NCBI GenBank assembly: GCA_003056265.1
Contig: NBVN01000004.1
Coordinates: forward strand, 210,001-242,000
Reading direction: 5' to 3'
Source of the DNA: Zestosphaera tikiterensis
GTDB taxonomy: Archaea > Thermoproteota > Thermoprotei_A > Sulfolobales > NBVN01
DNA: 32,000 nt
Shown here in pieces: positions 1,899-31,072 of the stretch (within the stretch, counting starts at the first letter, position 1; every line of letters starts with the position of its first letter). The notes below the pieces were generated by a model. That model saw only the letters and a program-made list of their open reading frames with translations. It was not told the origin of the DNA and ran no database searches. The position numbers were made by a program, and so were the translations under genes.

Positions 1899-2939
1899 AT
1901 GTCCGTTAATTCAATTAAGGTTTTTGAGGATTTTATTGACCTTCTAGATTTAATAGACTACAGCAGAATTCTCGTACTAGTTGACGTAAGCGGTTATGAA
2001 GAAGCTTTTTTTAAAATATTCGATGATAGGAAGGACTTAAAACTTGCTTACACGTCAAGACCTGAAGGGGTGAGTTACAAATCCCCCAACACTATAGTTT
2101 TTCCGTTACCGGAGCTTAAGTATAGTCTATGGACTACTTACTCAAGTGAATCACTAGATTTAAAATTAGAGGTTGTAGACTCGAATATAACGTATTCAAC
2201 AGAGCAAGTGTACATAGTTTCAAAGGTGAATCCTCTTAGTCTTTACGTAATGCATGAAGTCCTTAAAACACTTTCAAACTTTAAAGCTAGGGAGTTCCCC
2301 GTTAATTTATTCCTGCTTATTGAAGGTAATTTAACACCTATAGATAGGTTCAACTTACTTACGTTTTTAAGTGACGCCATAGAGAGCAGGTTCTTTAACA
2401 ATGCCTTTATAACAACCCTCAATTTAGAGAAGTATTTCGGCACTTTATACACGCGTGCCACATTAGCTTGGGGCTTGCTAGTTTTACTAACAAAGTTCAA
2501 AGATATACTTACCAGCAAAGGTCGGGAGGTGTTCTTCTTAACGTCATTTAAGTTGGAGAACCCGGATTTAATACTTAAGGATTTAAACGGTTTGGTGGAG
2601 GTAGGCAAGTATTCCGTATGGAATGACATCTTTAAAGCTGATAGTGGTTACGCCTACTTAGAAGGGCAGAGTGAGTATTTAAGTAATTTAATGGTTTCAG
2701 ACCTTATCAAAAGTAACGAATGGTTAGCCCAGAGGGTTTTAACCGAACCGGATGATAGAGCTCGCTATGTTAATCTACTACTGCTTGAATCAAGTAAGGA
2801 ATACTTAGCAACTATGTTGCGTGTACCGCAAGATGTGTTAAACGAGGTAAGCCAGAGTGAGAGGCTCAATAAGTTTTTAATTAAAGTAGTAGGTGTGGCT
2901 AAGGAATTCATAGATTGGTTAAGCGGGGGTGGTAAGTAG
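1899..2939 (+). CDS. hypothetical protein, 346 aa, no recognisable catalytic motif
   Basis: Long ORF with ATG start, gaggtg SD at 1886-1891 and ttaaatata TATA-like box about 45 nt upstream. Its stop lies 2 nt before the next ORF. No P-loop or other motif seen. Confidence 0.7.
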   Translation: MSVNSIKVFEDFIDLLDLIDYSRILVLVDVSGYEEAFFKIFDDRKDLKLAYTSRPEGVSYKSPNTIVFPLPELKYSLWTTYSSESLDLKLEVVDSNITYSTEQVYIVSKVNPLSLYVMHEVLKTLSNFKAREFPVNLFLLIEGNLTPIDRFNLLTFLSDAIESRFFNNAFITTLNLEKYFGTLYTRATLAWGLLVLLTKFKDILTSKGREVFFLTSFKLENPDLILKDLNGLVEVGKYSVWNDIFKADSGYAYLEGQSEYLSNLMVSDLIKSNEWLAQRVLTEPDDRARYVNLLLLESSKEYLATMLRVPQDVLNEVSQSERLNKFLIKVVGVAKEFIDWLSGGGK

Positions 2940-2941
2940 TT

Positions 2942-5143
2942 TTGAGTGAGGAACGACCTCCTCTCATAACGTATAAAAAGCTTGCGTCAATACCGGTAGC
3001 TATTTGGTTGTTAATCACTAGTTATGCTTTAGGAATTAATCAATATGTTGAAGGGTTGATAGTTACCGGCGCTTTAGTAGTTTCAGCTTTTGCGATACCT
3101 TTTCTATTTAGTGAAAGAGAGCCTTACTACGATGCCTTAGTGCTTTCGCCTATGTATATCGGGTATGTCTTAATGGTTAACGTAGCGTATTCGGTTGTGC
3201 CCGCACACATAGCGATATCGAGTAGTTTATACGTGGCTCTAATTACTTTGCTGTCAGCGGCCATACCTCTGGCTTGGAACTTCTCTTCAAAGTTAAGTTT
3301 GCTTGATTTAACGCCTCAAGTGCTTACCCTGTACTTCATTTCGTTTTCCACGTCGTATTTTAAGCCGTTAAACCTGTATTCAAACCTCTTCATACTTAGC
3401 TTATCGTTAACCTTCATAAAAAGCTTTAAGAGTTTGTTAGGTATGTTTATGGTTTTAAGCTTAACTTTACTACCGTTTTTAGGAGCTCCTTACATGATTA
3501 CAGACCTTAGCACGATACCTTACATAAACTTAGGTATTCCTGAGACGTCAGTTGATATATATGGTTACGCAATCTTAATAACGTACTTAACTTTACTCAC
3601 ATGTTCGATACCTGCGGGGTACGTGTCTTTGTTCCTTTCAAGGAAGTTTAGACGTCTTAATAACATATATGACGCTTTATGGAACGCAACGTTACTACTT
3701 ACCCCACCCCTAGTTTTTACGCTTCTATACTTTACTTTAATGTCCAGCATAACTCAGTTGTTTAAGTTAAGGTATTTATACCTTAATCTATTGTTAATTA
3801 CTTTACTTACCTTACCTAACTCACTTTTCAAGAGTTACCTAGAGGTTAGGGGTGGTTTAATAAGATCCACGAACGAGCTTAGAAGTCGATATATGAAATT
3901 ACGGGCTAGGGTTGAACGTTTAGGCAACACGTTATCTAAAACACGCTCCTCAGGTATGTGGGGTGAAGAACTGAATCCTTTAAATGAGCGTCTAGACTCG
4001 CTTGCTAAGGAGTTAGAATCCTTAAGTAATGTGTTTAAGAAGTCTATACTTAAAAACTACGAGATAAGCGACGTCTCGAAGAGATTAAACTTGATTGAAG
4101 ATGGGGTATCTTCAATCGAGGAGAGCCTAGTAAACATGTATAATGAAGCCATTAGGTTGGCCACGCAAGCTAAGGCTATTTTAACCGTTAGCTTTTCAAC
4201 TTCAAAGAAGTCTTTAGAGCCTTACACTCTAGAATTAAATGAAGTTAATGATATAAACAAAGTTGGAGAATTAGTTGAAGAAACGGCCTCGTACTTAAGT
4301 AGTTTATGTGATGAAATGTATGAGCTAGTGGAATATAACAAACACATAATGTCTGAAGCCTTAGGTATTTCACTAATTGATTTAAATACTATGAAGTGCG
4401 GTGAGTATCCGTCTAGGGTTAAAGCGTTAGAAAGCGTTTTAAATGTTTACGTTAGAATTGTTCGTATAGCTGGCGATGAAGTTAATAAAATATACGGCAA
4501 TCTACTAAAGATTAAAAACATAGCGACTAACTTAGTTAAGGCCTTCGAGACCTCAAGTAGGGAGGAGCTCCTTTCAGTAAATGCTGTTTTCGAGGTAGGT
4601 GAGATATTAAAGGAATTACCCGAGACTTTAGATAGGACGGCACGAATAGCTGGTTTAAGCGGGTTAATCACGCTTATCGAAAGACTTACTGAGGTTGTGG
4701 TTAACATACCCGAGGGTTTAAAGGCGGATCTTGAGAAAACGCTTGAATACCTTAACAAACGCTTACCCGGTAAGGTAGACATAGTTAGAAACGTATCTCA
4801 AAGGTATAGGAGAAGAATAAACAGTTTTATTTCGAAACTAGATTTAGAAGCTTTAACAACAGCTAGGAACTATGTAGTTAAAAGCGATGCGTTACTTAAG
4901 ATCTTTGAGGAAGGCACGCAAACCTTCATGACGTTGGTAAGGGATTTAACGTATCTTAGGAGCTTAGCACACGTAACTCCATTACTGCTGGACTACATAG
5001 ACTATAAGTTAAGGAGTAAAGGGTTTATAAACATTAACGAATTACCCTTTAAAGCTGAAGTTACAGCGTGGATTTTAAGGATTGTTATGTCCTTGAGGGA
5101 GGATATAGAGGTAGAGAACGATAAACTCATGCTTAAGAGGTAG
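2942..5143 (+). CDS. hypothetical polytopic membrane protein with a long C-terminal helical/coiled-coil domain, 733 aa
   Basis: TTG start 2 nt after the upstream stop, preceded by gggggtggt SD-like motif (translational coupling). The first ~300 aa are hydrophobic and multi-TM. The rest is charged and Leu/Glu/Lys-rich with a heptad-like appearance. Confidence 0.75.
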   Translation: MSEERPPLITYKKLASIPVAIWLLITSYALGINQYVEGLIVTGALVVSAFAIPFLFSEREPYYDALVLSPMYIGYVLMVNVAYSVVPAHIAISSSLYVALITLLSAAIPLAWNFSSKLSLLDLTPQVLTLYFISFSTSYFKPLNLYSNLFILSLSLTFIKSFKSLLGMFMVLSLTLLPFLGAPYMITDLSTIPYINLGIPETSVDIYGYAILITYLTLLTCSIPAGYVSLFLSRKFRRLNNIYDALWNATLLLTPPLVFTLLYFTLMSSITQLFKLRYLYLNLLLITLLTLPNSLFKSYLEVRGGLIRSTNELRSRYMKLRARVERLGNTLSKTRSSGMWGEELNPLNERLDSLAKELESLSNVFKKSILKNYEISDVSKRLNLIEDGVSSIEESLVNMYNEAIRLATQAKAILTVSFSTSKKSLEPYTLELNEVNDINKVGELVEETASYLSSLCDEMYELVEYNKHIMSEALGISLIDLNTMKCGEYPSRVKALESVLNVYVRIVRIAGDEVNKIYGNLLKIKNIATNLVKAFETSSREELLSVNAVFEVGEILKELPETLDRTARIAGLSGLITLIERLTEVVVNIPEGLKADLEKTLEYLNKRLPGKVDIVRNVSQRYRRRINSFISKLDLEALTTARNYVVKSDALLKIFEEGTQTFMTLVRDLTYLRSLAHVTPLLLDYIDYKLRSKGFININELPFKAEVTAWILRIVMSLREDIEVENDKLMLKR

Positions 5144-5150
5144 GTTTCCA

Positions 5151-5303
5151 TGCTGACGGCCCCTGTTGTTTATGGCAGGGGTTCTCCCCCTAGGGCTTGC
5201 ATTACTTCTCTGAAGCCCCTCACCGGGAGTGCATCACCCATCAGTTCCCGCCGTCAGCACCGGGAAGGTGTGGGTCTCATCCCTATTACGGTTGCCCACA
5301 CCC
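5151..5303 (-). ncRNA. unassigned GC-rich structured RNA candidate (10-bp closed three-hairpin cloverleaf plus adjacent 8-bp hairpin)
   Basis: ORF-free GC-rich island in AT-rich DNA. Perfect stems are 5151-5160/5250-5259, 5161-5165/5176-5180, 5193-5198/5213-5218, 5225-5228/5246-5249 and 5267-5274/5295-5302. The strand call rests only on a BRE/TATA-like box on the minus strand about 25 nt from 5310. The plus strand is not excluded. Confidence 0.45.
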
Positions 5304-5332
5304 AACCATGACTTAATTAATTAATCACAAAC

Positions 5333-5346
5333 TTATAAACATTTAC
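5333..5346 (-). promoter_or_regulatory. BRE/TATA-like box oriented toward the 5151-5303 RNA candidate
   Basis: The minus strand reads gtaaat-g-tttataa (RNWAAW-like BRE directly upstream of the TATA). A start about 25 nt downstream would fall near 5310, just outside the 8-bp hairpin. Confidence 0.35.
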
Positions 5347-5348
5347 TC

Positions 5349-5361
5349 TATATTTTAAAAA
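5349..5361 (+). promoter_or_regulatory. TATA box for the 5378 gene (leaderless-type spacing)
   Basis: tatattttaaaaa is centred about 25 nt upstream of the TTG/GTG start at 5378/5381. Confidence 0.4.
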
Positions 5362-5377
5362 GTGAGGTCTCAAAGGT

Positions 5378-6229
5378 TTGGTGACTAAATGTCTCGCAGA
5401 AGGTAAAATCTTCAGATGCAGTGTAAACTTAGAGAAGGGGTCTCTAGTTATTAAGAGGTTGGATGAAGATAGGCCGTTAGAGGTTAAGCTACCGTTCACT
5501 AACGTAAAGGATGTGTTATTGATTGGGGATAGAGTTAGGTTAATTTCTTCAGATGGGTTCGTAACTGAGGTATTCGTAAATGAAATCGTTAGAAAAGAAC
5601 TTAGTTTTACTGTCTTGATAGTTAAGTATTTAAAGGAAGGAGCCACGTTGAGAGAGAGGCTTGAGACCCTTATAGAGAGGTATGTGTCCCTAAACGGTTT
5701 AGCGTTGAAACTTATTACAAGCCTTGCGAAAAGCGCTATGCCTGATTGGGCCAAGGTAAGGGAGCTTTCTTTAAGGATAAACGACGTAGTCTCAGGGTTT
5801 CAAGACCTCGACGTGGAATACTTGAAGCTTACGTCAAGTAAGCTCTTGAGAGATGTAGAGATCAGAGATGTTACGCAAATATCAATGGACGTTAAGAACC
5901 TCGTAAGGTATGCGGTAAGTGCTTTTAAGGAGGCTATTAAAAAGATGGATTTAGGCGTCGACGCAACTCCCTTAATAGACTTAACGCTTCTAACCTTTGT
6001 ATACAGATACTCAAAAGATTTGGGGCTTGTTATTCAAGCTGAGAAAACTTTCAACATGTTTACAAGATCTGTTGAGGAATTTGCCGAAGGCTTGATAGGG
6101 TTTAACGAATCTCTGAAGTCAGGCTTCATAAATGGTTTCCTAGATAAGTTCAAAGCAGACGAGGACATACTTCAAACAAGTAAAGCCTATCTTAACTTAA
6201 TCGAGTCTACAGTAAGAGAGTTTCTCTGA
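5378..6229 (+). CDS. hypothetical protein, 283 aa (beta-rich N-terminal ~70 aa plus helical remainder)
   Basis: Long ORF with TTG (5378) or GTG (5381) start at leaderless distance from the TATA box. No motif recognised. Confidence 0.65.
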   Translation: MVTKCLAEGKIFRCSVNLEKGSLVIKRLDEDRPLEVKLPFTNVKDVLLIGDRVRLISSDGFVTEVFVNEIVRKELSFTVLIVKYLKEGATLRERLETLIERYVSLNGLALKLITSLAKSAMPDWAKVRELSLRINDVVSGFQDLDVEYLKLTSSKLLRDVEIRDVTQISMDVKNLVRYAVSAFKEAIKKMDLGVDATPLIDLTLLTFVYRYSKDLGLVIQAEKTFNMFTRSVEEFAEGLIGFNESLKSGFINGFLDKFKADEDILQTSKAYLNLIESTVREFL

Positions 6230-7228: not shown

Positions 7229-7371
7229 TAAACCTATAGAAGTTCATTCTACAGCAATTTTTAACTTAACGGTTACGTAGCGTTTCAAACACGTGGGTAA
7301 GGAACCTTTAAAGTTAGGATATCAGCTTAAATTCGTGGGAATGAACTAAAGTTAAAAGTTAGTTATGACGC

Positions 7372-7549
7372 CTGACTCCTCTCCGTCCTGAAGGACTTGG
7401 GGGTTATGGGTTGCTTTCATCAATCATCGACCTCTGAAGGCCTCAAAACATCGTGTAGGAGGTATTGGACTTCTAGAGGATGGTTTCGATATTGCTTGAG
7501 GCTTACCTTCAACACACTAAACATCATTACCGAAAATAAACTAAAACAA
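7372..7549 (+). repeat. copy A of a structured noncoding repeat element (short form)
   Basis: Alignable by eye over its whole length to the reverse complement of 30408-30695. The 34-nt core 7416-7449 is perfectly identical to the complement of 30516-30549. Contains hairpins 7385-7396, 7414-7440 and 7453-7515. Confidence 0.65.
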
Positions 7550-7571: not shown

Positions 7572-8333
7572 GTGGGGTTAACGTTGAAAGTTAGGTTAAT
7601 TATAGATGAGGGTTCCGGACCTTACAACATGGCATTGGATGAGGCACTTATGTACCTACATGGTTTAGGGTATTCACCCCCTACGTTAAGGCTTTACATG
7701 TTTAAACCATCAACTATAACTTTAGGTTATTTCCAGTCGGTAAGCGATAACGTTTCTGAAGAATGTTTAAGTAAAGTGCCTGTGGTTAGGAGGATTTCCG
7801 GCGGGGGAGCTGTTCTACATGATGAGTTTGGTGAGATAACGTATTCAATAGTTCTTAGGGAGAGTCAGGACTTGCGGAACCCCCTCCATTCGTTTAAGAT
7901 TTTAACTGAAGGCGTTGTAAGGGCTGCTAGATTTTTAGGAGCTCCAGCAGAGTTTGCTCCGTTAAACGATGGTATTATAGCTGGTAAGAAATTTTCTGGT
8001 CAAGCTCAAGCCCGTAAATTAGGTGTTATTTTACAGCATGGTACGTTTATGTATGCTACACGTGTTGAACTACTTGCCAAATGTTTAAAGGCTCCGACGG
8101 AGAAATTCGTAGGTAAGGGCACCACCTCTATATTAGATAGGGTTACAACGATATCTGCTTACTTAGGTAGGGAAGTAACTCGCGATGAAGCGGTAAACTC
8201 CTTAATTAAAGGATTTTCTGAGGCGTTGAAGCTAGACCTCTATGAGGGGACGTATAGCGAAGCAGAGTTAACACTTGCTAAGAGTATAGAATGGAAGTAC
8301 CGAAGTGTTGAATGGACGTATCTACGTCCCTGA
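7572..8333 (+). CDS. lplA: lipoate-protein ligase A, catalytic domain protein
   Basis: 253 aa. RRISGGGAVLHD and GKKFSGQAQ (lipoyl-AMP lysine region) motifs. N-terminal YNMALDEAL. Confidence 0.85.
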   Translation: MGLTLKVRLIIDEGSGPYNMALDEALMYLHGLGYSPPTLRLYMFKPSTITLGYFQSVSDNVSEECLSKVPVVRRISGGGAVLHDEFGEITYSIVLRESQDLRNPLHSFKILTEGVVRAARFLGAPAEFAPLNDGIIAGKKFSGQAQARKLGVILQHGTFMYATRVELLAKCLKAPTEKFVGKGTTSILDRVTTISAYLGREVTRDEAVNSLIKGFSEALKLDLYEGTYSEAELTLAKSIEWKYRSVEWTYLRP

Positions 8334-8342
8334 GGTGAGCCT

Positions 8343-8648
8343 GTGGAGATAGTTAAGATGTTTAAGAAACCTACTTCAAAGTTAATCATATTTAAGTTAA
8401 CGTTAAGCGATGATTGTTCGATAGTTAAGGCTTCGTTAGAAGGTGATTTCTTCGCTTATAGGCCGGAACTCGTTGATGAAAGTATTGATAGCCTTAAAGG
8501 GCTTAAACCGGATGCGTTGCTAGCTGAAGAATTACATAAAAAGTTAATGCGGTCATTCATTATAGGTGTTGAAGAATTAGATCTGCTGGCGTTTCTGAAG
8601 GAGGTCTTCGAAGAGAGCAGGGAGAAATGTGCGAAGAGCTTAAAGTAG
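8343..8648 (+). CDS. stand-alone LplA C-terminal accessory domain protein (LplB-like)
   Basis: 101 aa, immediately after lplA. EGDFFAYRPE resembles the GDFF block of the LplA C-terminal domain. A split LplA/LplB is known from Thermoplasma. Start uncertain (GTG 8343 or ATG 8358). Confidence 0.55.
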   Translation: MEIVKMFKKPTSKLIIFKLTLSDDCSIVKASLEGDFFAYRPELVDESIDSLKGLKPDALLAEELHKKLMRSFIIGVEELDLLAFLKEVFEESREKCAKSLK

Positions 8649-9307
8649 TTGTTTTTGATATGGACGGCGTTTTAATTAAGTGGAGGTCTTCCTGGCGTGT
8701 TCTACATCAGTACTTCAACTCGTTAGACATTGTAGAGGAGAGAAATGATGCGGAAAGGTTTCAACGAGGTGAGATTAGCTATAGGGAGTGGATGGCTAGA
8801 GACCTACAGGCCATACTGAAGGCTACAAATAAGCCCGTAACTAAAGAAGATCTTCTGAAAGTTTTTTCGAATTATGAGTTAGAGGAAGGCGTTGAAGAGT
8901 TAGTTAACGTAGTTAAGGGATACCACTTAAAAACGGCAATAGTAAGTGGAGGTATAGACTTACTGGCTGAGTTAATTCGAGAGAGGCTAGGCTTGGATAT
9001 GGCTTTAGCTAATAAACTTACCTTCAGTAGCGACGGGTATTTATTGCCTGAAGGCGTTGAAGTCGTGAACCCACTCCGGAAAAGTGAGGTGTTAACACGT
9101 ATTTCAAAGGAGTTGAACATACCGTTAAGTAAGTTTATGTTTATAGGGGATAGCCTGTGGGATCTGGAGGCGATGAACGTCGTAGGACATCCTGTCTTCG
9201 TCTTAAAAGATGAAGGCATAGACCTTAACATACTTAAAAACGTGTTTGTCGTGAAGTCGTTGCGCGAGTTAATTCCCTACATAAACAGAATATGTTCTAA
9301 AAAGTGA
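8627..9307 (+). CDS. HAD-superfamily phosphatase (phosphoserine phosphatase-like)
   Basis: 226 aa. Motif I VVFDMDGVL, motif II IVSGG, motif III K...FIGDSLWD. Overlaps the upstream gene by 22 nt. Confidence 0.75.
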   Translation: MCEELKVVVFDMDGVLIKWRSSWRVLHQYFNSLDIVEERNDAERFQRGEISYREWMARDLQAILKATNKPVTKEDLLKVFSNYELEEGVEELVNVVKGYHLKTAIVSGGIDLLAELIRERLGLDMALANKLTFSSDGYLLPEGVEVVNPLRKSEVLTRISKELNIPLSKFMFIGDSLWDLEAMNVVGHPVFVLKDEGIDLNILKNVFVVKSLRELIPYINRICSKK

Positions 9308-9311
9308 AACG

Positions 9312-10157
9312 TCACGTAAATAGGTGGAACTTATCTTTAGGTATGCTACAACAAGCGTTCACAACTTTAAGCTTAAAGGAGTCTATAACCTCCCGTTGAG
9401 GCATGACTATCCTATCCACTAAGCCATTACTTACCCAGAAAGAATCGTAGACCTTAAACTTAGGGCTTCTCATACAACCTAAGGCAACCTCGTTGAAGAG
9501 CCTCCTAGCTGTAGTTAAAACCTCCTTAACCCTGCTGAAGTCGTTTAAATCCGGAACTTTCATCTCAACTAACGCAACGAAAAGCCTAGGCTTAAGCATA
9601 GCTATCTTCCCAAGCACATTTAATTCATCCTCTAACGTGGATGTCCGTGAGTCTAAGATTAAATGAGGGACTGCGAAACCCTTATCCAACGTGAGGAGTT
9701 TCTCTAGAGTCCTAAGGTAATCATCAACCTTAAACCTTAGGTTACGGTAAGATTTAATGTAATCATCGCTTGGCGGTACTTCAAAATCTATGAAATCAAA
9801 TCCGGCGTTCCACACCTTCTCTACGAGAGTATCTGGGACCATACCTAAATGTATTGAAAACACTGATTCATGATTTCCTTTAAACTTCTTTATAACGCTT
9901 AACATCTCATCTGAAATCTTTAAATATCCATCTCGTGTAAACCCACCGCTAATTAGAAAGCCTTTAACGCCTTTAACGTAAAGGTGATTCAGTAAGTTTT
10001 CAAACTCTTCTGAAGTCCTAACTTGCAACATACTGCGTAGGTATCTAGCTTGGCAGTGTGGACACATTAATTCGCAATGTTGCCCTGTTATTGATATAGA
10101 TACGTATTTACGCCCAGGTATAAATGCGTAGGTCTCAACCATTTTAACATAGCCCAT
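9312..10157 (-). CDS. radical SAM protein, second biotin-synthase-related paralog; candidate LipS-type lipoyl synthase component
   Basis: CELMCPHC (Cx3Cx2C) motif. I prefer the ATG at 10157, which overlaps the iorB stop as TAATG, over the TTG at 10187 in the ORF track. Confidence 0.65.
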   Translation of the reverse strand: MGYVKMVETYAFIPGRKYVSISITGQHCELMCPHCQARYLRSMLQVRTSEEFENLLNHLYVKGVKGFLISGGFTRDGYLKISDEMLSVIKKFKGNHESVFSIHLGMVPDTLVEKVWNAGFDFIDFEVPPSDDYIKSYRNLRFKVDDYLRTLEKLLTLDKGFAVPHLILDSRTSTLEDELNVLGKIAMLKPRLFVALVEMKVPDLNDFSRVKEVLTTARRLFNEVALGCMRSPKFKVYDSFWVSNGLVDRIVMPQREVIDSFKLKVVNACCSIPKDKFHLFT

Positions 10158-10783
10158 TAAAAAGTTTTTAAATTTACTGAAGCCCAAGTTTTACCTTCGT
10201 AATAAGCCTTAAGCGAGGTTTCTAGAGCGTTTCCTTTAAATAAGTTCTTCAAAGCCTCCTCAACTATCTCATCTTTAAAGAGCTTAGACACATAATTAAA
10301 CACACCTAACAAAACCATGTTTGAAGCCCTAACAGAACCTGTTTTTAGGGCTATATCCCTAGCAGGAACTACAGCTAAGTTGTTGCCTAGGCAACCTTTA
10401 ATCTTCGAAACGAGTTCATCCTTAGGCGTAGGTTTGCTCCCAGATAAGCTGGCTGAAATAGGTGGTTTAACCTCATTAGACACTACGGCGTAACCTCCCT
10501 CACAACTCAAGTATTTTAAAGCCCTCACACATTCTATAAGTTCTAAACATATTAGGTAGTCAGCCTCTCCCAAACCGAAAAGAGGTGAATATACCTCTTC
10601 CTCAACACCCACTCTAACAAAACTTAAAACGCTGCCGAACCTTTGAGCCATACCTAAAGTCTCGCCAGTTCTTACAGAGTAGTTACTGAGTACGGACGCT
10701 ATAGCTAGCGTCCTCGACAACGTAAGTCCTCCTTGACCACCTACGGAAGCTATTAAAACGTTAACAACTCTATTACTTAACAT
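10157..10783 (-). CDS. iorB: indolepyruvate:ferredoxin oxidoreductase beta subunit
   Basis: 208 aa. N-terminal NVLIASVGGQGG. Starts 3 nt after iorA. Confidence 0.8.
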   Translation of the reverse strand: MLSNRVVNVLIASVGGQGGLTLSRTLAIASVLSNYSVRTGETLGMAQRFGSVLSFVRVGVEEEVYSPLFGLGEADYLICLELIECVRALKYLSCEGGYAVVSNEVKPPISASLSGSKPTPKDELVSKIKGCLGNNLAVVPARDIALKTGSVRASNMVLLGVFNYVSKLFKDEIVEEALKNLFKGNALETSLKAYYEGKTWASVNLKTF

Positions 10784-24430: not shown

Positions 24431-24737
24431 GGCGCGGCTCCCCTTACCACGTAGGGACAGACACTAACCGGCATTCAAGCCGTCCTCCACCCGGTGACCT
24501 GCGAACGTCGGCGTCGGAGGTTAGGTTGCTCCCTTCCGGGCCTGGCCAGGTTCCCCCCGCAAAGGCGGTTGACACCTCCCCTCCAGGAGGTGCTCCGCCA
24601 CCGCCGACCCCGCAGGGCGGGATTCATCGCTGGTCTTGAAGCGGTTAGTGCCTGCCCACTACGTGGTAAGGGGTTACTGGCCCCGCATTACGCCTTCGGC
24701 GAGGGGAGGTGGCGAGCCTCCCAGCCCTACCCGCGCC
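24431..24737 (-). ncRNA. ffs: signal recognition particle (7S) RNA
   Basis: 307-nt GC-rich island. The minus strand carries the helix-8 motif ggccaggcccggaagggagcaac (compare E. coli 4.5S GGUCCGGAAGGAAGCAGC). The ends ggcgcgg and ccgcgcc pair. Confidence 0.9.
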
Positions 24738-25170: not shown

Positions 25171-25872
25171 TTAAGGTGTGTAGCAGGGGTTAGGTATTAA
25201 CGGGACTTCCTTACTTAGTAGGTCTATGTAGTACTGAACGTTGATAACGAAGTCTCTGAAGGCGCTTATGGGAACTACGAAACAGCCTTTCCTAGGCTCT
25301 TTTAAAACCTCAGTTAACGTAACTATGACTGGCGTGAAATGCCTAGCTTTCTTAAGGGTTTTATACTTATTCCTTAAACTCCAACATTCCCTAGCTATGT
25401 ATTCCGTTTTAACTCTATGGTTTGAAGCTACGTATTCCAGCTTGCTTTTCTTGCTGTATCCTGGAGACCAATGCTTGCAGTCTATAACTAGACCAACACC
25501 CGTAGTATGGTTTACAGCTACTACGTCAATCTCGTATCGTTTACCGAAGGTCTTAAGTGAATGAATTACTTCATAATCCGCAAGGCTTAAGTAGTGAAGG
25601 ACTAGCTCTTCAAAATCTCTCCAATCTAAGGTTTCCGCAACGACGTAGGGATCGACACCATACTCTAAAGCTCTTAAAGCTATCGGGACTAAAGTCTTAA
25701 AGCATAGTACGTCTGCCTTATTTACTAACGTGTTGGGAACTTCAACGTAGTCTTTAAGTATTTGATCAAGCGTTGCGATCTTCTCTAACTCCTCCCTACT
25801 CACGCATTTATCGCGTCTAGTCAATTCCTTAAGAAGTAACGTATACGTGGTTAAGCCCACCTTACTAATCAA
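25171..25872 (-). CDS. Mrr-cat / PD-(D/E)xK restriction-endonuclease-like protein with an N-terminal helical (wHTH-like) region
   Basis: 233 aa. WRDFEELVLHYL...YEIDVVAV...GLVIDCKHW matches the FE..v...GiD-ii...vQcK pattern of the Mrr catalytic domain. TTG start. Confidence 0.65.
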   Translation of the reverse strand: MISKVGLTTYTLLLKELTRRDKCVSREELEKIATLDQILKDYVEVPNTLVNKADVLCFKTLVPIALRALEYGVDPYVVAETLDWRDFEELVLHYLSLADYEVIHSLKTFGKRYEIDVVAVNHTTGVGLVIDCKHWSPGYSKKSKLEYVASNHRVKTEYIARECWSLRNKYKTLKKARHFTPVIVTLTEVLKEPRKGCFVVPISAFRDFVINVQYYIDLLSKEVPLIPNPCYTP

Positions 25873-30267: not shown

Positions 30268-31072
30268 ATGTTAGCTAAGCTCGCTAGGCTTATCGCCGAA
30301 TACTGCGTTAATGTAAAGCAGGGGATGAGGTTCTCATCAACGCTTCCTTAGAGGCTTACAACCGAAAGCCTCGCCTCTTTAGGGTGGGGATGAAGGTTTA
30401 TAAGCTGTTGTTTCTAGTTCATTTTTGGTGATGATGTTTAATGTGTGTGGGAGGCAAACCTCAAACAAATCAATCAAAGCATACACGTAACCCATACCAT
30501 GCCCTCCCACATGAAGTTTTGAGGCCTTCAGAGGTCGATGATTGATGAAGGTATTCCATAACCCCAAGTCCCCGAGGGGGGATAGGGGTAATGGGCTGGA
30601 GGCCCGGCCCGGAGGTGAATGAAGAAAGATGTACCTCCAAACCAATGAACCGCCCGAAGAGGGACCCCGCCCTTCAGGACGGGGAGGAGGTCAGCCAGCC
30701 ATATGGCGTGGTGTGGAGGTTAGGAACGTTAGGTTAGTCTTTAAGAAGGGTGTGGTTGTTGAAGCTAAAGCTGAAAGCGGTGAGGATTACTTAAGGAAAA
30801 TGCTTGAGACTGATGAAGGTGCTAGGAGGGTTGGTGAGGTTGCTTTCGGTCTGAATTACGACATAACTAAGCAAACTAGGGAGATTTTATTCGATGAGAA
30901 GATAGGCGGTACAATACATATAGCTTTAGGCTCCTCCTACGTTAAAACCGGCGGTAAGAACGTTTCAGCCATTCACTGGGACTTAGTGAAGGGTATGAAG
31001 AACGGTAGGGTTTTCGCGGATGGTGATCTAATATATGAGAACGGCAAGTTCTTAGATGAGGTGTTTAAATGA
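30268..31072 (+). pseudogene. decayed M29-family (AmpS/PepS-type) aminopeptidase; frameshifted N-terminus, central part replaced by a repeat element
   Basis: 30268-30324 encodes MLAKLARLIAEYCVNVKQG. The family-like continuation DEVLINASLEAYN needs a -1 shift at the G-run 30321-30324. From about 30698 a third frame encodes ...[17 protein letters not shown]...AIHWDLV (M29 C-terminal metal-binding blocks). Roughly 200 codons expected in between are missing. Confidence 0.7.
30408..30695 (-). repeat. copy B of the structured noncoding repeat element (long form with a ~100-nt hairpin extension)
   Basis: The reverse complement aligns to 7372-7549. The extra GC-rich segment at about 30571-30671 sits exactly in the loop of the hairpin that is gtcc-tgaa-ggac in copy A. 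Confidence 0.65.

Follow-up and report, generated by a model that had tools for sequence, protein, structure and literature searches.

A multi-copy, gene-less insertion with a GC-rich body in Zestosphaera tikiterensis is probably an IS200/IS605-type element carrying an omega-RNA-like RNA

Palindrome-associated transposable elements (PATEs) descend from IS200/IS605 (IS1341-type) elements but carry no genes of their own (PMC4615843; PMC10055086). They often encode omega-RNAs, which TnpB employs in trans (PMC10055086). In peel-and-paste elements, a transposon-adjacent motif (TAM) is located beside the left end and a transposon-encoded motif (TEM) at the right end (PMC10055086), and the cutting of excised sites by TnpB restores the element (Meers et al., PMC10055086). 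IS1341-type tnpB genes give rise, at their 3' ends, to the sense overlapping transcript RNAs (sotRNAs), whose UUCA tetraloop is also seen in HgcC and in one PATE-derived RNA (Gomes-Filho et al., PMC4615843). TCAC is the documented TAM of AmaTnpB (PMC10278001), and archaeal TnpB enzymes are active RNA-guided nucleases. Here, we analysed a stretch of 32,000 nt (hereafter the window) from Zestosphaera tikiterensis, a member of the Desulfurococcaceae, in which positions 5153-5380 hold an inserted element with a GC-rich body. We consider it probable, at roughly 0.7, that these positions are one copy of a small, gene-less, multi-copy IS200/IS605-type (PATE-like) element with an omega-RNA-like RNA. 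The original prediction, made from the letters of the window, had described the GC-rich part as an unassigned cloverleaf-plus-hairpin RNA, free of open reading frames (ORFs) and possibly belonging to the operon around it.

The insertion and its immediate surroundings comprise the following features.

Positions 5153-5380, minus strand (the top strand of the element is the minus strand of the window): the whole inserted element, 228 bp; L001 and L008, contigs from a sister species, show the empty site instead.
Positions 5381-5384, minus strand: host target motif TCAC (TAM-like), adjoining the left end on its 5' side (top strand); the same motif stands at three left-end junctions.
Positions 5153-5160, minus strand: right-end terminus ...GCCGUCAG (TEM-like GTCAG), which doubles as the 3' half of the closing stem, paired with 5250-5257.
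Positions 5364-5380, plus strand: GAGGT (5364-5368) and a TTG start codon (5378-5380), both derived from the element and now heading the gene for a 283-aa protein.
Positions 5150-5311, plus strand: an ORF of 53 codons that uses the former ATG of the 283-aa gene and was considered a by-product, not a gene.

The proteins of L001 and L008 are 64-66% identical to those of the window and 98% identical to each other. In both contigs, the genes for a 733-aa and the 283-aa protein are 6 nt apart, with synteny kept and no element between them, and the strain-level relatives (98% amino acid identity; L002 and others) contain it. With carets marking the boundaries, the empty site reads ...CTTCAATG^GTAACTAAATG and the filled site of the window ...TTTCCATG^(228 nt)^GTGACTAAATG; over a longer stretch, these are ...AGGTAAGCTTCAATG^GTAACTAAATGT and ...AGGTAGGTTTCCATG^(228 nt)^GTGACTAAATGT. 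The empty sites therefore identify 5153-5380 as an insertion, which falls precisely between the start codon (ATG) of the 283-aa gene and its second codon; the boundary is ambiguous by 1 nt. There was no target duplication between the filled and the empty site, and the ends of the element, CTGACGG... and ...GGTTTG, are not inverted repeats. The ancestral ATG persists at 5150-5152, where it now starts the 53-codon ORF. The 283-aa gene begins TTG GTG ACT AAA TGT in the window and ATG GTA ACT AAA TGT in L001 and L008, both giving MVTKC, and it has been called either as 283 aa from the TTG or as 282 aa from the GTG.

The element is present in multiple copies. At the DNA level, further copies were located in L002 (8965-9187), in L018 (974-1200) and twice in L019, namely L019a (8220-8385 plus its left end) and L019b (10019-10176), which is shortened on its left side. 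A covariance model (CM) of the body, built on four sequences, recovered five full-length copies from four loci with 145-204 bits; the copy at L019 8220-8385 was found through this model. A search with the translated 53-aa frame returned short ORFs (P0012-P0018) of 65-84% identity, whose N- and C-terminal flanks were unrelated. The tally is four loci at the DNA level and five further copies at the ORF level, all on Joint Genome Institute (JGI) hot-spring contigs, for which a shared single-genome origin is not established. DNA flanking the copies outside the junctions was unrelated between loci.

Comparisons of the junctions, read on the minus strand of the window and the corresponding strand elsewhere, gave AGTCAC^CAAACCTTTGAG ... 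CAGGGGCCGTCAG^CATGG for the window, GTTCAC^CACATGCTTGAGG ... GGGGCCGTCAG^CCTCT for L018, AATCAC^TCCATATCTGAGG ... AAGTCGTCAG^CATAA for L019a, and a right end of GCCACCAG^CTCCG for L019b. TCAC thus precedes the left end at three independent loci (window, L018 and L019a), and TTAC stands in the empty site, which reads AGTTAC^CAT on the minus strand; on the plus strand, 5381-5384 is GTGA, which in the 283-aa gene makes up codon 2 (GTG) and begins codon 3. The right-end termini are GCCGTCAG^C in the window and L018, GTCGTCAG^C in L019a and CCACCAG^C in L019b. Two further sequences of the window, element B and its shortened copy A, end in GGAGGTCAG^C and GGAGTCAG^G, respectively. GTCAG terminates four of the five copies as well as copy A and element B, with a GC-rich hairpin lying 2-7 nt upstream of the terminus, and the HgcC consensus likewise ends in ...GGAGGUCAGC followed by variable sequence. 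As far as the junctions can be read from sequence, a fixed T(C/T)AC at one end and GTCAG at the other, with neither inverted repeats nor duplication, is the signature of IS200/IS605 peel-and-paste elements. Y1 elements of the peel-and-paste kind are the best fit to the 4-nt target and the constant right terminus.

Other searches for copies returned little. A blastn search with the element as query found no second copy in the window, L001 or L002, and blastn against phage and plasmid collections gave chance AT-rich matches only. Exact-word scans of viral contigs (three patterns), genome contigs (one) and metagenome contigs (two) gave only chance bacterial matches; these scans of contig collections (19-20-mers) also missed the window's own genome, L002, L018 and L019, so their negatives are uninformative. 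The two copies on L019, 8220-8385 (plus) and 10011-10176 (minus), are inverted, about 1.6 kb apart, and bracket a gene call for a 571-aa PMT_2-like protein (8177-9892, minus), the 3' end of which extends into one of the copies. A sequence resembling a box C/D small RNA (sRNA) was seen at L019 10166-10219 (minus; sR5, 21.3 bits, E = 0.0065, below the cut-off of 40), exactly where L019b stops matching the left arm.

The left part of the element and the two related sequences of the window are described by the following features.

Positions 5306-5380, minus strand: AT-rich left-end (LE) arm, alignable with the left ends of L018, L019a and element B.
Positions 5332-5347, minus strand: promoter AGTAAATGTTTATAAG, resembling a transcription factor B recognition element (BRE) and TATA box, which would drive top-strand transcription from a start at about 5309-5312.
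Positions 30360-30697, plus strand: element B, gene-less, 338 nt, with a body that matches sot0042 and HgcC below threshold.
Positions ~7360-7549, minus strand: copy A, a shortened copy of element B without the central ~105 nt, ending in GGAGTCAG.

Element B connects the window element to described RNAs. Its body scored 38 bits against sot0042 (E = 1.7e-8) and 31 bits against HgcC (E = 1.9e-5), both below the gathering cut-offs, and the match includes a hairpin CCCCGCCC-UUCA-GGACGGGG followed by GAGGAGGUCAGC. Element B replaces 633 nt of a Peptidase_M29 gene, of which a C-terminal ORF of 147 aa is left (30629-31072), and the strain contig L016 carries an intact gene for a 366-aa M29 peptidase at this position. 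The left junction of element B is GGCTTAC^AACCG and the right one is GGAGGTCAG^CCAGCC, where L016 reads GATTAC^CCAGCC; both junctions come after TTAC in the intact gene. The first ~100 nt of element B (30360-30455) align with the left arms of the window element, L018 and L019a over the blocks T(C/T)AC^, GAGGCC.CGC.T.TT.A, GRRTRAA.GTTTATAAGCT and TG.GTGTGGG. Since the left end and the GTCAG end are shared and the body of element B is HgcC/sot0042-like, the window element is thereby linked to IS200/IS605.

The region around copy A also differs between strains. Positions 7401-7500 are a hot spot of divergence from L002 (11 differences), and the L002 patch there looks like the window's other copy (GTATTTCATAACC versus GTATTCCATAACC); to judge from these patches, the copies may have exchanged sequence by gene conversion. 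Comparisons of the intergenic region of copy A with the sister species were too diverged for its boundaries to be defined by alignment.

The promoter block is the best-conserved part of the left end, with GTAAATGTTTATAAG in the window and L002, GTAAAAGTTTATAAG in L018 and ATGAAGGTTTATAAG in element B, and it is degenerate in L019a. The original prediction had already pointed to a BRE/TATA-like AGTAAATG-TTTATAA on the minus strand (5347-5333) at promoter distance from about 5310, and this proposal is credible, as it falls in the best-kept block of the AT-rich arm across copies. The spacing resembles that of the promoter of the signal recognition particle (SRP) RNA in the window, which was used as the local promoter reference. 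With the promoter in the left end pointing to the right end and the scaffold abutting the terminus, a transcript would leave the element through its right end.

The window element and element B have in common a left arm with BRE/TATA, a target and a terminus, and their RNA bodies, compared by sequence, differ. One possible extension of this observation is a modular archaeal PATE chassis, in which a common left arm (TAM and promoter) and the GTCAG terminus would be combined with interchangeable RNA bodies; the new body, with two kink-loops (K-loops), would then be an L7Ae-assembled guide or scaffold RNA. Its partner could be a divergent TnpB-like nuclease acting in trans; alternatively, the RNA could act without such a nuclease, for example in an antisense or regulatory role. 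We regard this extension as unlikely.

The RNA body, on the minus strand, is composed of the following parts.

Positions 5267-5302, minus strand: 5' hairpin H1, GGUGUGGG paired with CCCACACC, with a conserved loop motif GGGAUGAGA.
Positions 5225-5249, minus strand: hairpin GGGA/UCCC, with a K-loop-like CUGA-N3-4-UGAUG in its loop (minus strand, 5244 to 5232).
Positions 5193-5218, minus strand: hairpin GGGCUU/AAGCCC, with a variable loop.
Positions 5160-5181, minus strand: right-end subterminal hairpin CCCCUG...CAGGGG.
Positions 5133-5152, minus strand: host stretch CAUGGAAACCUACCUCUUAA, which a read-through transcript would carry as its 3' tail, as suggested by the geometry and the omega-RNA model (PMC10055086).

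The conspicuous GC content had been noticed correctly, at 0.58-0.59 for 5150-5312 and 0.42 for the whole window, and the hairpins ccctg/caggg, gggctt/aagccc and ggga/tccc, as well as a separate 8-bp hairpin (5267-5274 with 5295-5302), are all present. An outer stem of 10 bp (5151-5160 with 5250-5259) does exist at these coordinates, but only 8 bp of it belong to the element: t5151 and g5152 are remnants of the old ATG of the host, hence the outer two pairs are host DNA, and L002, a strain of 98% identity, has mismatches at two of the ten pairs. The tRNA-like cloverleaf gained no backing from covariation across copies. An Rfam search, which had been proposed along with it, gave no family at threshold for the GC-rich body and only noise at E<=10. 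A strongly structured, unassigned GC-rich sequence is what was found, and the predicted cloverleaf and hairpin are the GC-rich body of the element plus its right-end hairpin.

Conservation differed between the hairpins. The 5' arm of H1 is homologous to UGUGUGGGAGG of element B, and H1 is broken in the shortened copy L019b. CUGA-N3-4-UGAUG is kept in all five copies with a varying spacer (CUGAUGGGUGAUG, CUGAUAGAUGAUG and CUGAUAGUGAUG), and occurs once in the 32-kb window, where 0.42 occurrences were expected. The loop of GGGCUU/AAGCCC reads CAGA-GCG-GUGAUG in L002 and L018, where it forms a second K-loop-like motif, UAGA-GGC-GUGGUG in L019, and CAGA-GAA-GUAAUG in the window, where the motif is degenerate; 5 of the 11 differences between the window and L002 fall in this hairpin. 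At the right end, L019b has CCCCGC...GCGGGG, with two compensated pairs after a 2-nt realignment by eye, and the variants in L019a and element B are GCCA-UUCA-UGGC and the UUCA hairpin given above. RNAalifold retained the closing stem, H1, the GGGA/UCCC hairpin and a GGGGCUU/AAGCCCU hairpin.

The motif CUGA-N3-4-UGAUG resembles a C'/D' K-loop, and binding of L7Ae to it is a putative lead. A duplicated sRNA that binds L7Ae to the benefit of the host, either C/D-like or another K-turn ribonucleoprotein (RNP), for instance antisense to the end of the 733-aa gene or the start of the 283-aa gene, could also account for a hairpin motif kept in all copies, for a conserved promoter of its own, for an RNA antisense to the operon junction and for weak C/D matches. 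Such an RNA is decidedly unlikely, however, given that the C/D models of Rfam scored 9-13 bits against cut-offs of 39-55, the box spacings are wrong and the guides shorter than 10 nt, the sister species lacks the element, the second motif is degenerate in the window and the covariation is not significant. Box C/D sRNA as such was rejected, with the C'/D'-like K-loop as the only feature of that class.

Other classes of RNA were rejected as well. The scan of the window against Rfam returned only the SRP RNA at gathering cut-offs, and a permissive scan of 5050-5420 (E<=10) returned only C/D and H/ACA noise below 14 bits. For a tRNA or tRNA-like RNA, there was no match to RF00005 at E<=10, no GTTCRA T-loop and no tRNA in the ARAGORN output. 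Hand inspection spoke against a split or intron-containing tRNA and RNase P, with neither a T-loop nor a bulge-helix-bulge (BHB) motif, and against an H/ACA sRNA, with no ANA after either closing stem on either strand (HgcG 8.6 and PyrR205 11.8 bits). An mRNA intron that restores ATG-GTG was rejected too, as neither junction has a BHB and the insertion is AT-rich in its right third.

The evidence on the strand of the RNA is mixed and leans towards minus. The predicted fold, compared with dinucleotide shuffles, reached -67.4 kcal/mol on the plus strand (z = -3.7) and -71.0 kcal/mol on the minus strand (z = -2.9). Hints for the minus strand are the BRE-like RTRAA upstream of TATA on the top strand, the excess of G over C, the cost of the L002 substitutions (2.7 kcal/mol versus 11.3 on the plus strand), pair 60-158, which is AU, GU or GC across copies, and a faint HgcC match of L019b on the top strand (14 bits, E = 0.58). 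The plus-strand fold, together with the position between two co-oriented ORFan genes, would also agree with a unique, structured RNA of the cluster of 346-, 733- and 283-aa genes, or with a plus-strand mRNA structure that acts there in cis. This is very improbable, because the clusters of L001 and L008 have no element, the copies elsewhere stand beside unrelated genes and the plus-strand fold loses those 11.3 kcal/mol in L002. The proposed membership in the flanking operon is thus not supported, nor is a unique host RNA gene, as the sequence forms part of a mobile insertion with several copies, namely its body and its right end.

The 53-codon ORF, which contradicts the description of the region as ORF-free, might be taken for a real 53-aa protein encoded at 5150-5311 on the plus strand. 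Its open frame with an ATG, a GAGGT upstream and similar ORFs called in other copies are in keeping with such a protein. A 1-nt indel shifts the C-terminus in L002 and the changes are nearly all non-synonymous, which argues against a protein gene; in addition, there was no Pfam match, the ATG is the displaced start of the 283-aa gene, and the comparable ORFs in other copies, some of them annotated by gene callers, differ in the positions of their starts and stops. We consider this protein hardly credible.

Divergence between strains was also compared. Between the window and L002, 1.8% of all sites and ~3% of third codon positions are different; the part of the element that was compared, 162 nt long, contains 11 differences. 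Other intergenic stretches are about as variable, so the element is no more conserved than other intergenic DNA. About 4 of the 11 differences lie in stems, and none is compensatory. Diversifying selection or a diversity-generating retroelement (DGR) was considered for the hypervariable loops and rejected: L002 and L018 share CAGAGCGGUGAUGG, so the window loop is the diverged state, and the overall divergence is within the intergenic range. Contigs from three independent metagenome assemblies begin or stop in or around the element, with the ends of L009 and L010 and the starts of L011, L012 and L007 at window positions 5196, 5148, 5313, 5291 and 5339, respectively. These breaks were first read as a repeat signal, a reading set aside as strain differences explain them at least as well; they probably arose from co-existing strains that differ most densely here.

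According to the favoured explanation, the element, which was inserted 3' of a host T(C/T)AC without target duplication, would be mobilised in trans by a Y1 TnpA encoded elsewhere. Transcription from the left-arm promoter would cover the GC-rich body (5310 to 5153), cross the right end ...GCCGUCAG and continue into the host sequence. The RNA would most likely serve as an omega-RNA-like scaffold, which a TnpB-type nuclease with its gene at another locus would use in trans. The 5133-5152 tail, which is antisense to the 733-aa gene around its stop and Shine-Dalgarno region, may be guide-like in analogy to omega-RNAs. The 3' read-through (CAUGGAAACCUACC...) would match the DNA after TCAC in the empty site, which would make CATGGAAACCTACCTC the target of TnpB with TCAC or TTAC as TAM. 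The tail would then guide TnpB to cut excised, TCAC-flanked empty sites, by which the element would be restored and kept in place.

Several observations weigh against this explanation. No TnpA or TnpB gene was found in the window or at any related locus read (~140 kb in all, ~110 kb of it related contigs), there is no tnpB overlapping or adjoining the element, and the top-strand frames of the body are, by eye, short and interrupted by stops. The body of the window copy and of L019a matched no omega-RNA family in Rfam (E<=10). Unlike canonical IS200/IS605 ends, the left- and right-end hairpins are not clearly alike: the left end of L018 has CCGCTTTTTAAAGCGG, the right end of L019b has the CCCCGC...GCGGGG hairpin, and the window left end has no clear hairpin. 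The fold z-score weakens to -1.6 once the 20-nt tail is added. Covariation, a test suggested with the original prediction, was non-significant in the five copies (86.8% of cells paired versus 86.1% in shuffles, with only 2 double changes). The substitutions at 5213 (L002) and in column 61-157 (L019b) keep pairing on the plus strand only.

The same absence of a transposase from the loci read, the dissimilar hairpins, the body without an omega-RNA match and a strain divergence like that of unconstrained intergenic DNA would suit a mobile or dispersed element outside IS200/IS605, be it a miniature inverted-repeat transposable element (MITE) of another IS family, a derivative resembling IS607 or IS91, or an sRNA gene spread by recombination, with the body as cargo or decay and no omega-RNA role. 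It is, however, a minor possibility, since there are no terminal inverted repeats and no duplication, the target and terminus suit Y1 elements, and the left end is common with an element whose body matches the IS1341-linked HgcC and sot0042.

The IS200/IS605-type element favoured here can be compared with the described systems. Like PATEs, it is short, gene-less and multi-copy, has neither terminal inverted repeats nor a target duplication, inserts 3' of a fixed 4-nt motif and has a fixed right terminus after a GC-rich hairpin, and its structured RNA would, by its predicted promoter, be directed out through the right end. Unlike PATEs, its cognate TnpA/TnpB are not among the loci read, its body has no sequence or CM likeness to described omega-RNA or sotRNA families, its promoter lies in a left arm common with a second element type, and its left and right hairpins are not obviously alike. 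The target motif of IS608 is TTAC. As in the IS608, ISDra2 and AmaTnpB types of IS200/IS605, a TAM is located beside the left end, and the right end has a related motif (TEM); tnpA, tnpB or both are present in those elements, whereas here there are no genes and the host is a Desulfurococcaceae archaeon.

Its likeness to HgcC (RF00062) and sot0042 (RF02656) consists of a high-GC RNA in an AT-rich hyperthermophile with a terminal hairpin, ...GUCAG(C) and then non-conserved sequence. In contrast to these families, the window body scores nothing against either model (L019b reaches the 14 bits with HgcC), and the UUCA tetraloop is not in the window copy, although it is present in L019a. With archaeal box C/D sRNAs, the element shares a hairpin loop, CUGA-N3-4-UGAUG, that resembles a D'/C' K-loop, but it has no terminal C/D pair and no guides of 10-12 nt, and its Rfam scores are far under the cut-offs. 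The window element is a new family within a known kind of element.

The surroundings of the element include the following genes and RNAs.

Positions 1899-6229, plus strand: the 346-, 733- and 283-aa genes, none of which has a Pfam match.
Positions 24431-24737, minus strand: archaeal SRP RNA, full length, 175 bits, with an upstream ATTAAAA at promoter distance.
Positions 25171-25872, minus strand: ORF of 233 aa with NERD and Mrr_cat nuclease domains, adjoining the SRP RNA region.

The 733-aa protein is PUA32338.1, and the adjoining genes bear the consecutive locus tags B7O98_06675 and B7O98_06680. It appears to be multi-pass membrane at its N-terminus, followed by a long helical region. Among 5.8 billion proteins, the 733-aa and 283-aa proteins have just two relative clusters each, and their relatives were found only in Z. 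tikiterensis and the sister species.

GC islands of AT-rich hyperthermophiles are usually taken as host structural RNAs; here such an island would be transposon cargo, which calls for caution in GC-island screens for RNAs. The locus is also a natural case in which a gene survived an insertion between its start codon and codon 2, because the end of the element supplies GAGGT and a TTG start. If it is true that the RNA guides TnpB, the TCAC TAM and the scaffold would define a directly testable thermostable system, and the modular chassis, if true, would be a previously undescribed class of transposon-borne archaeal RNP. The element would add a Desulfurococcaceae family to the PATE and omega-RNA world, with a scaffold missed by Rfam, a promoter arm common with HgcC-like elements and a candidate K-loop.

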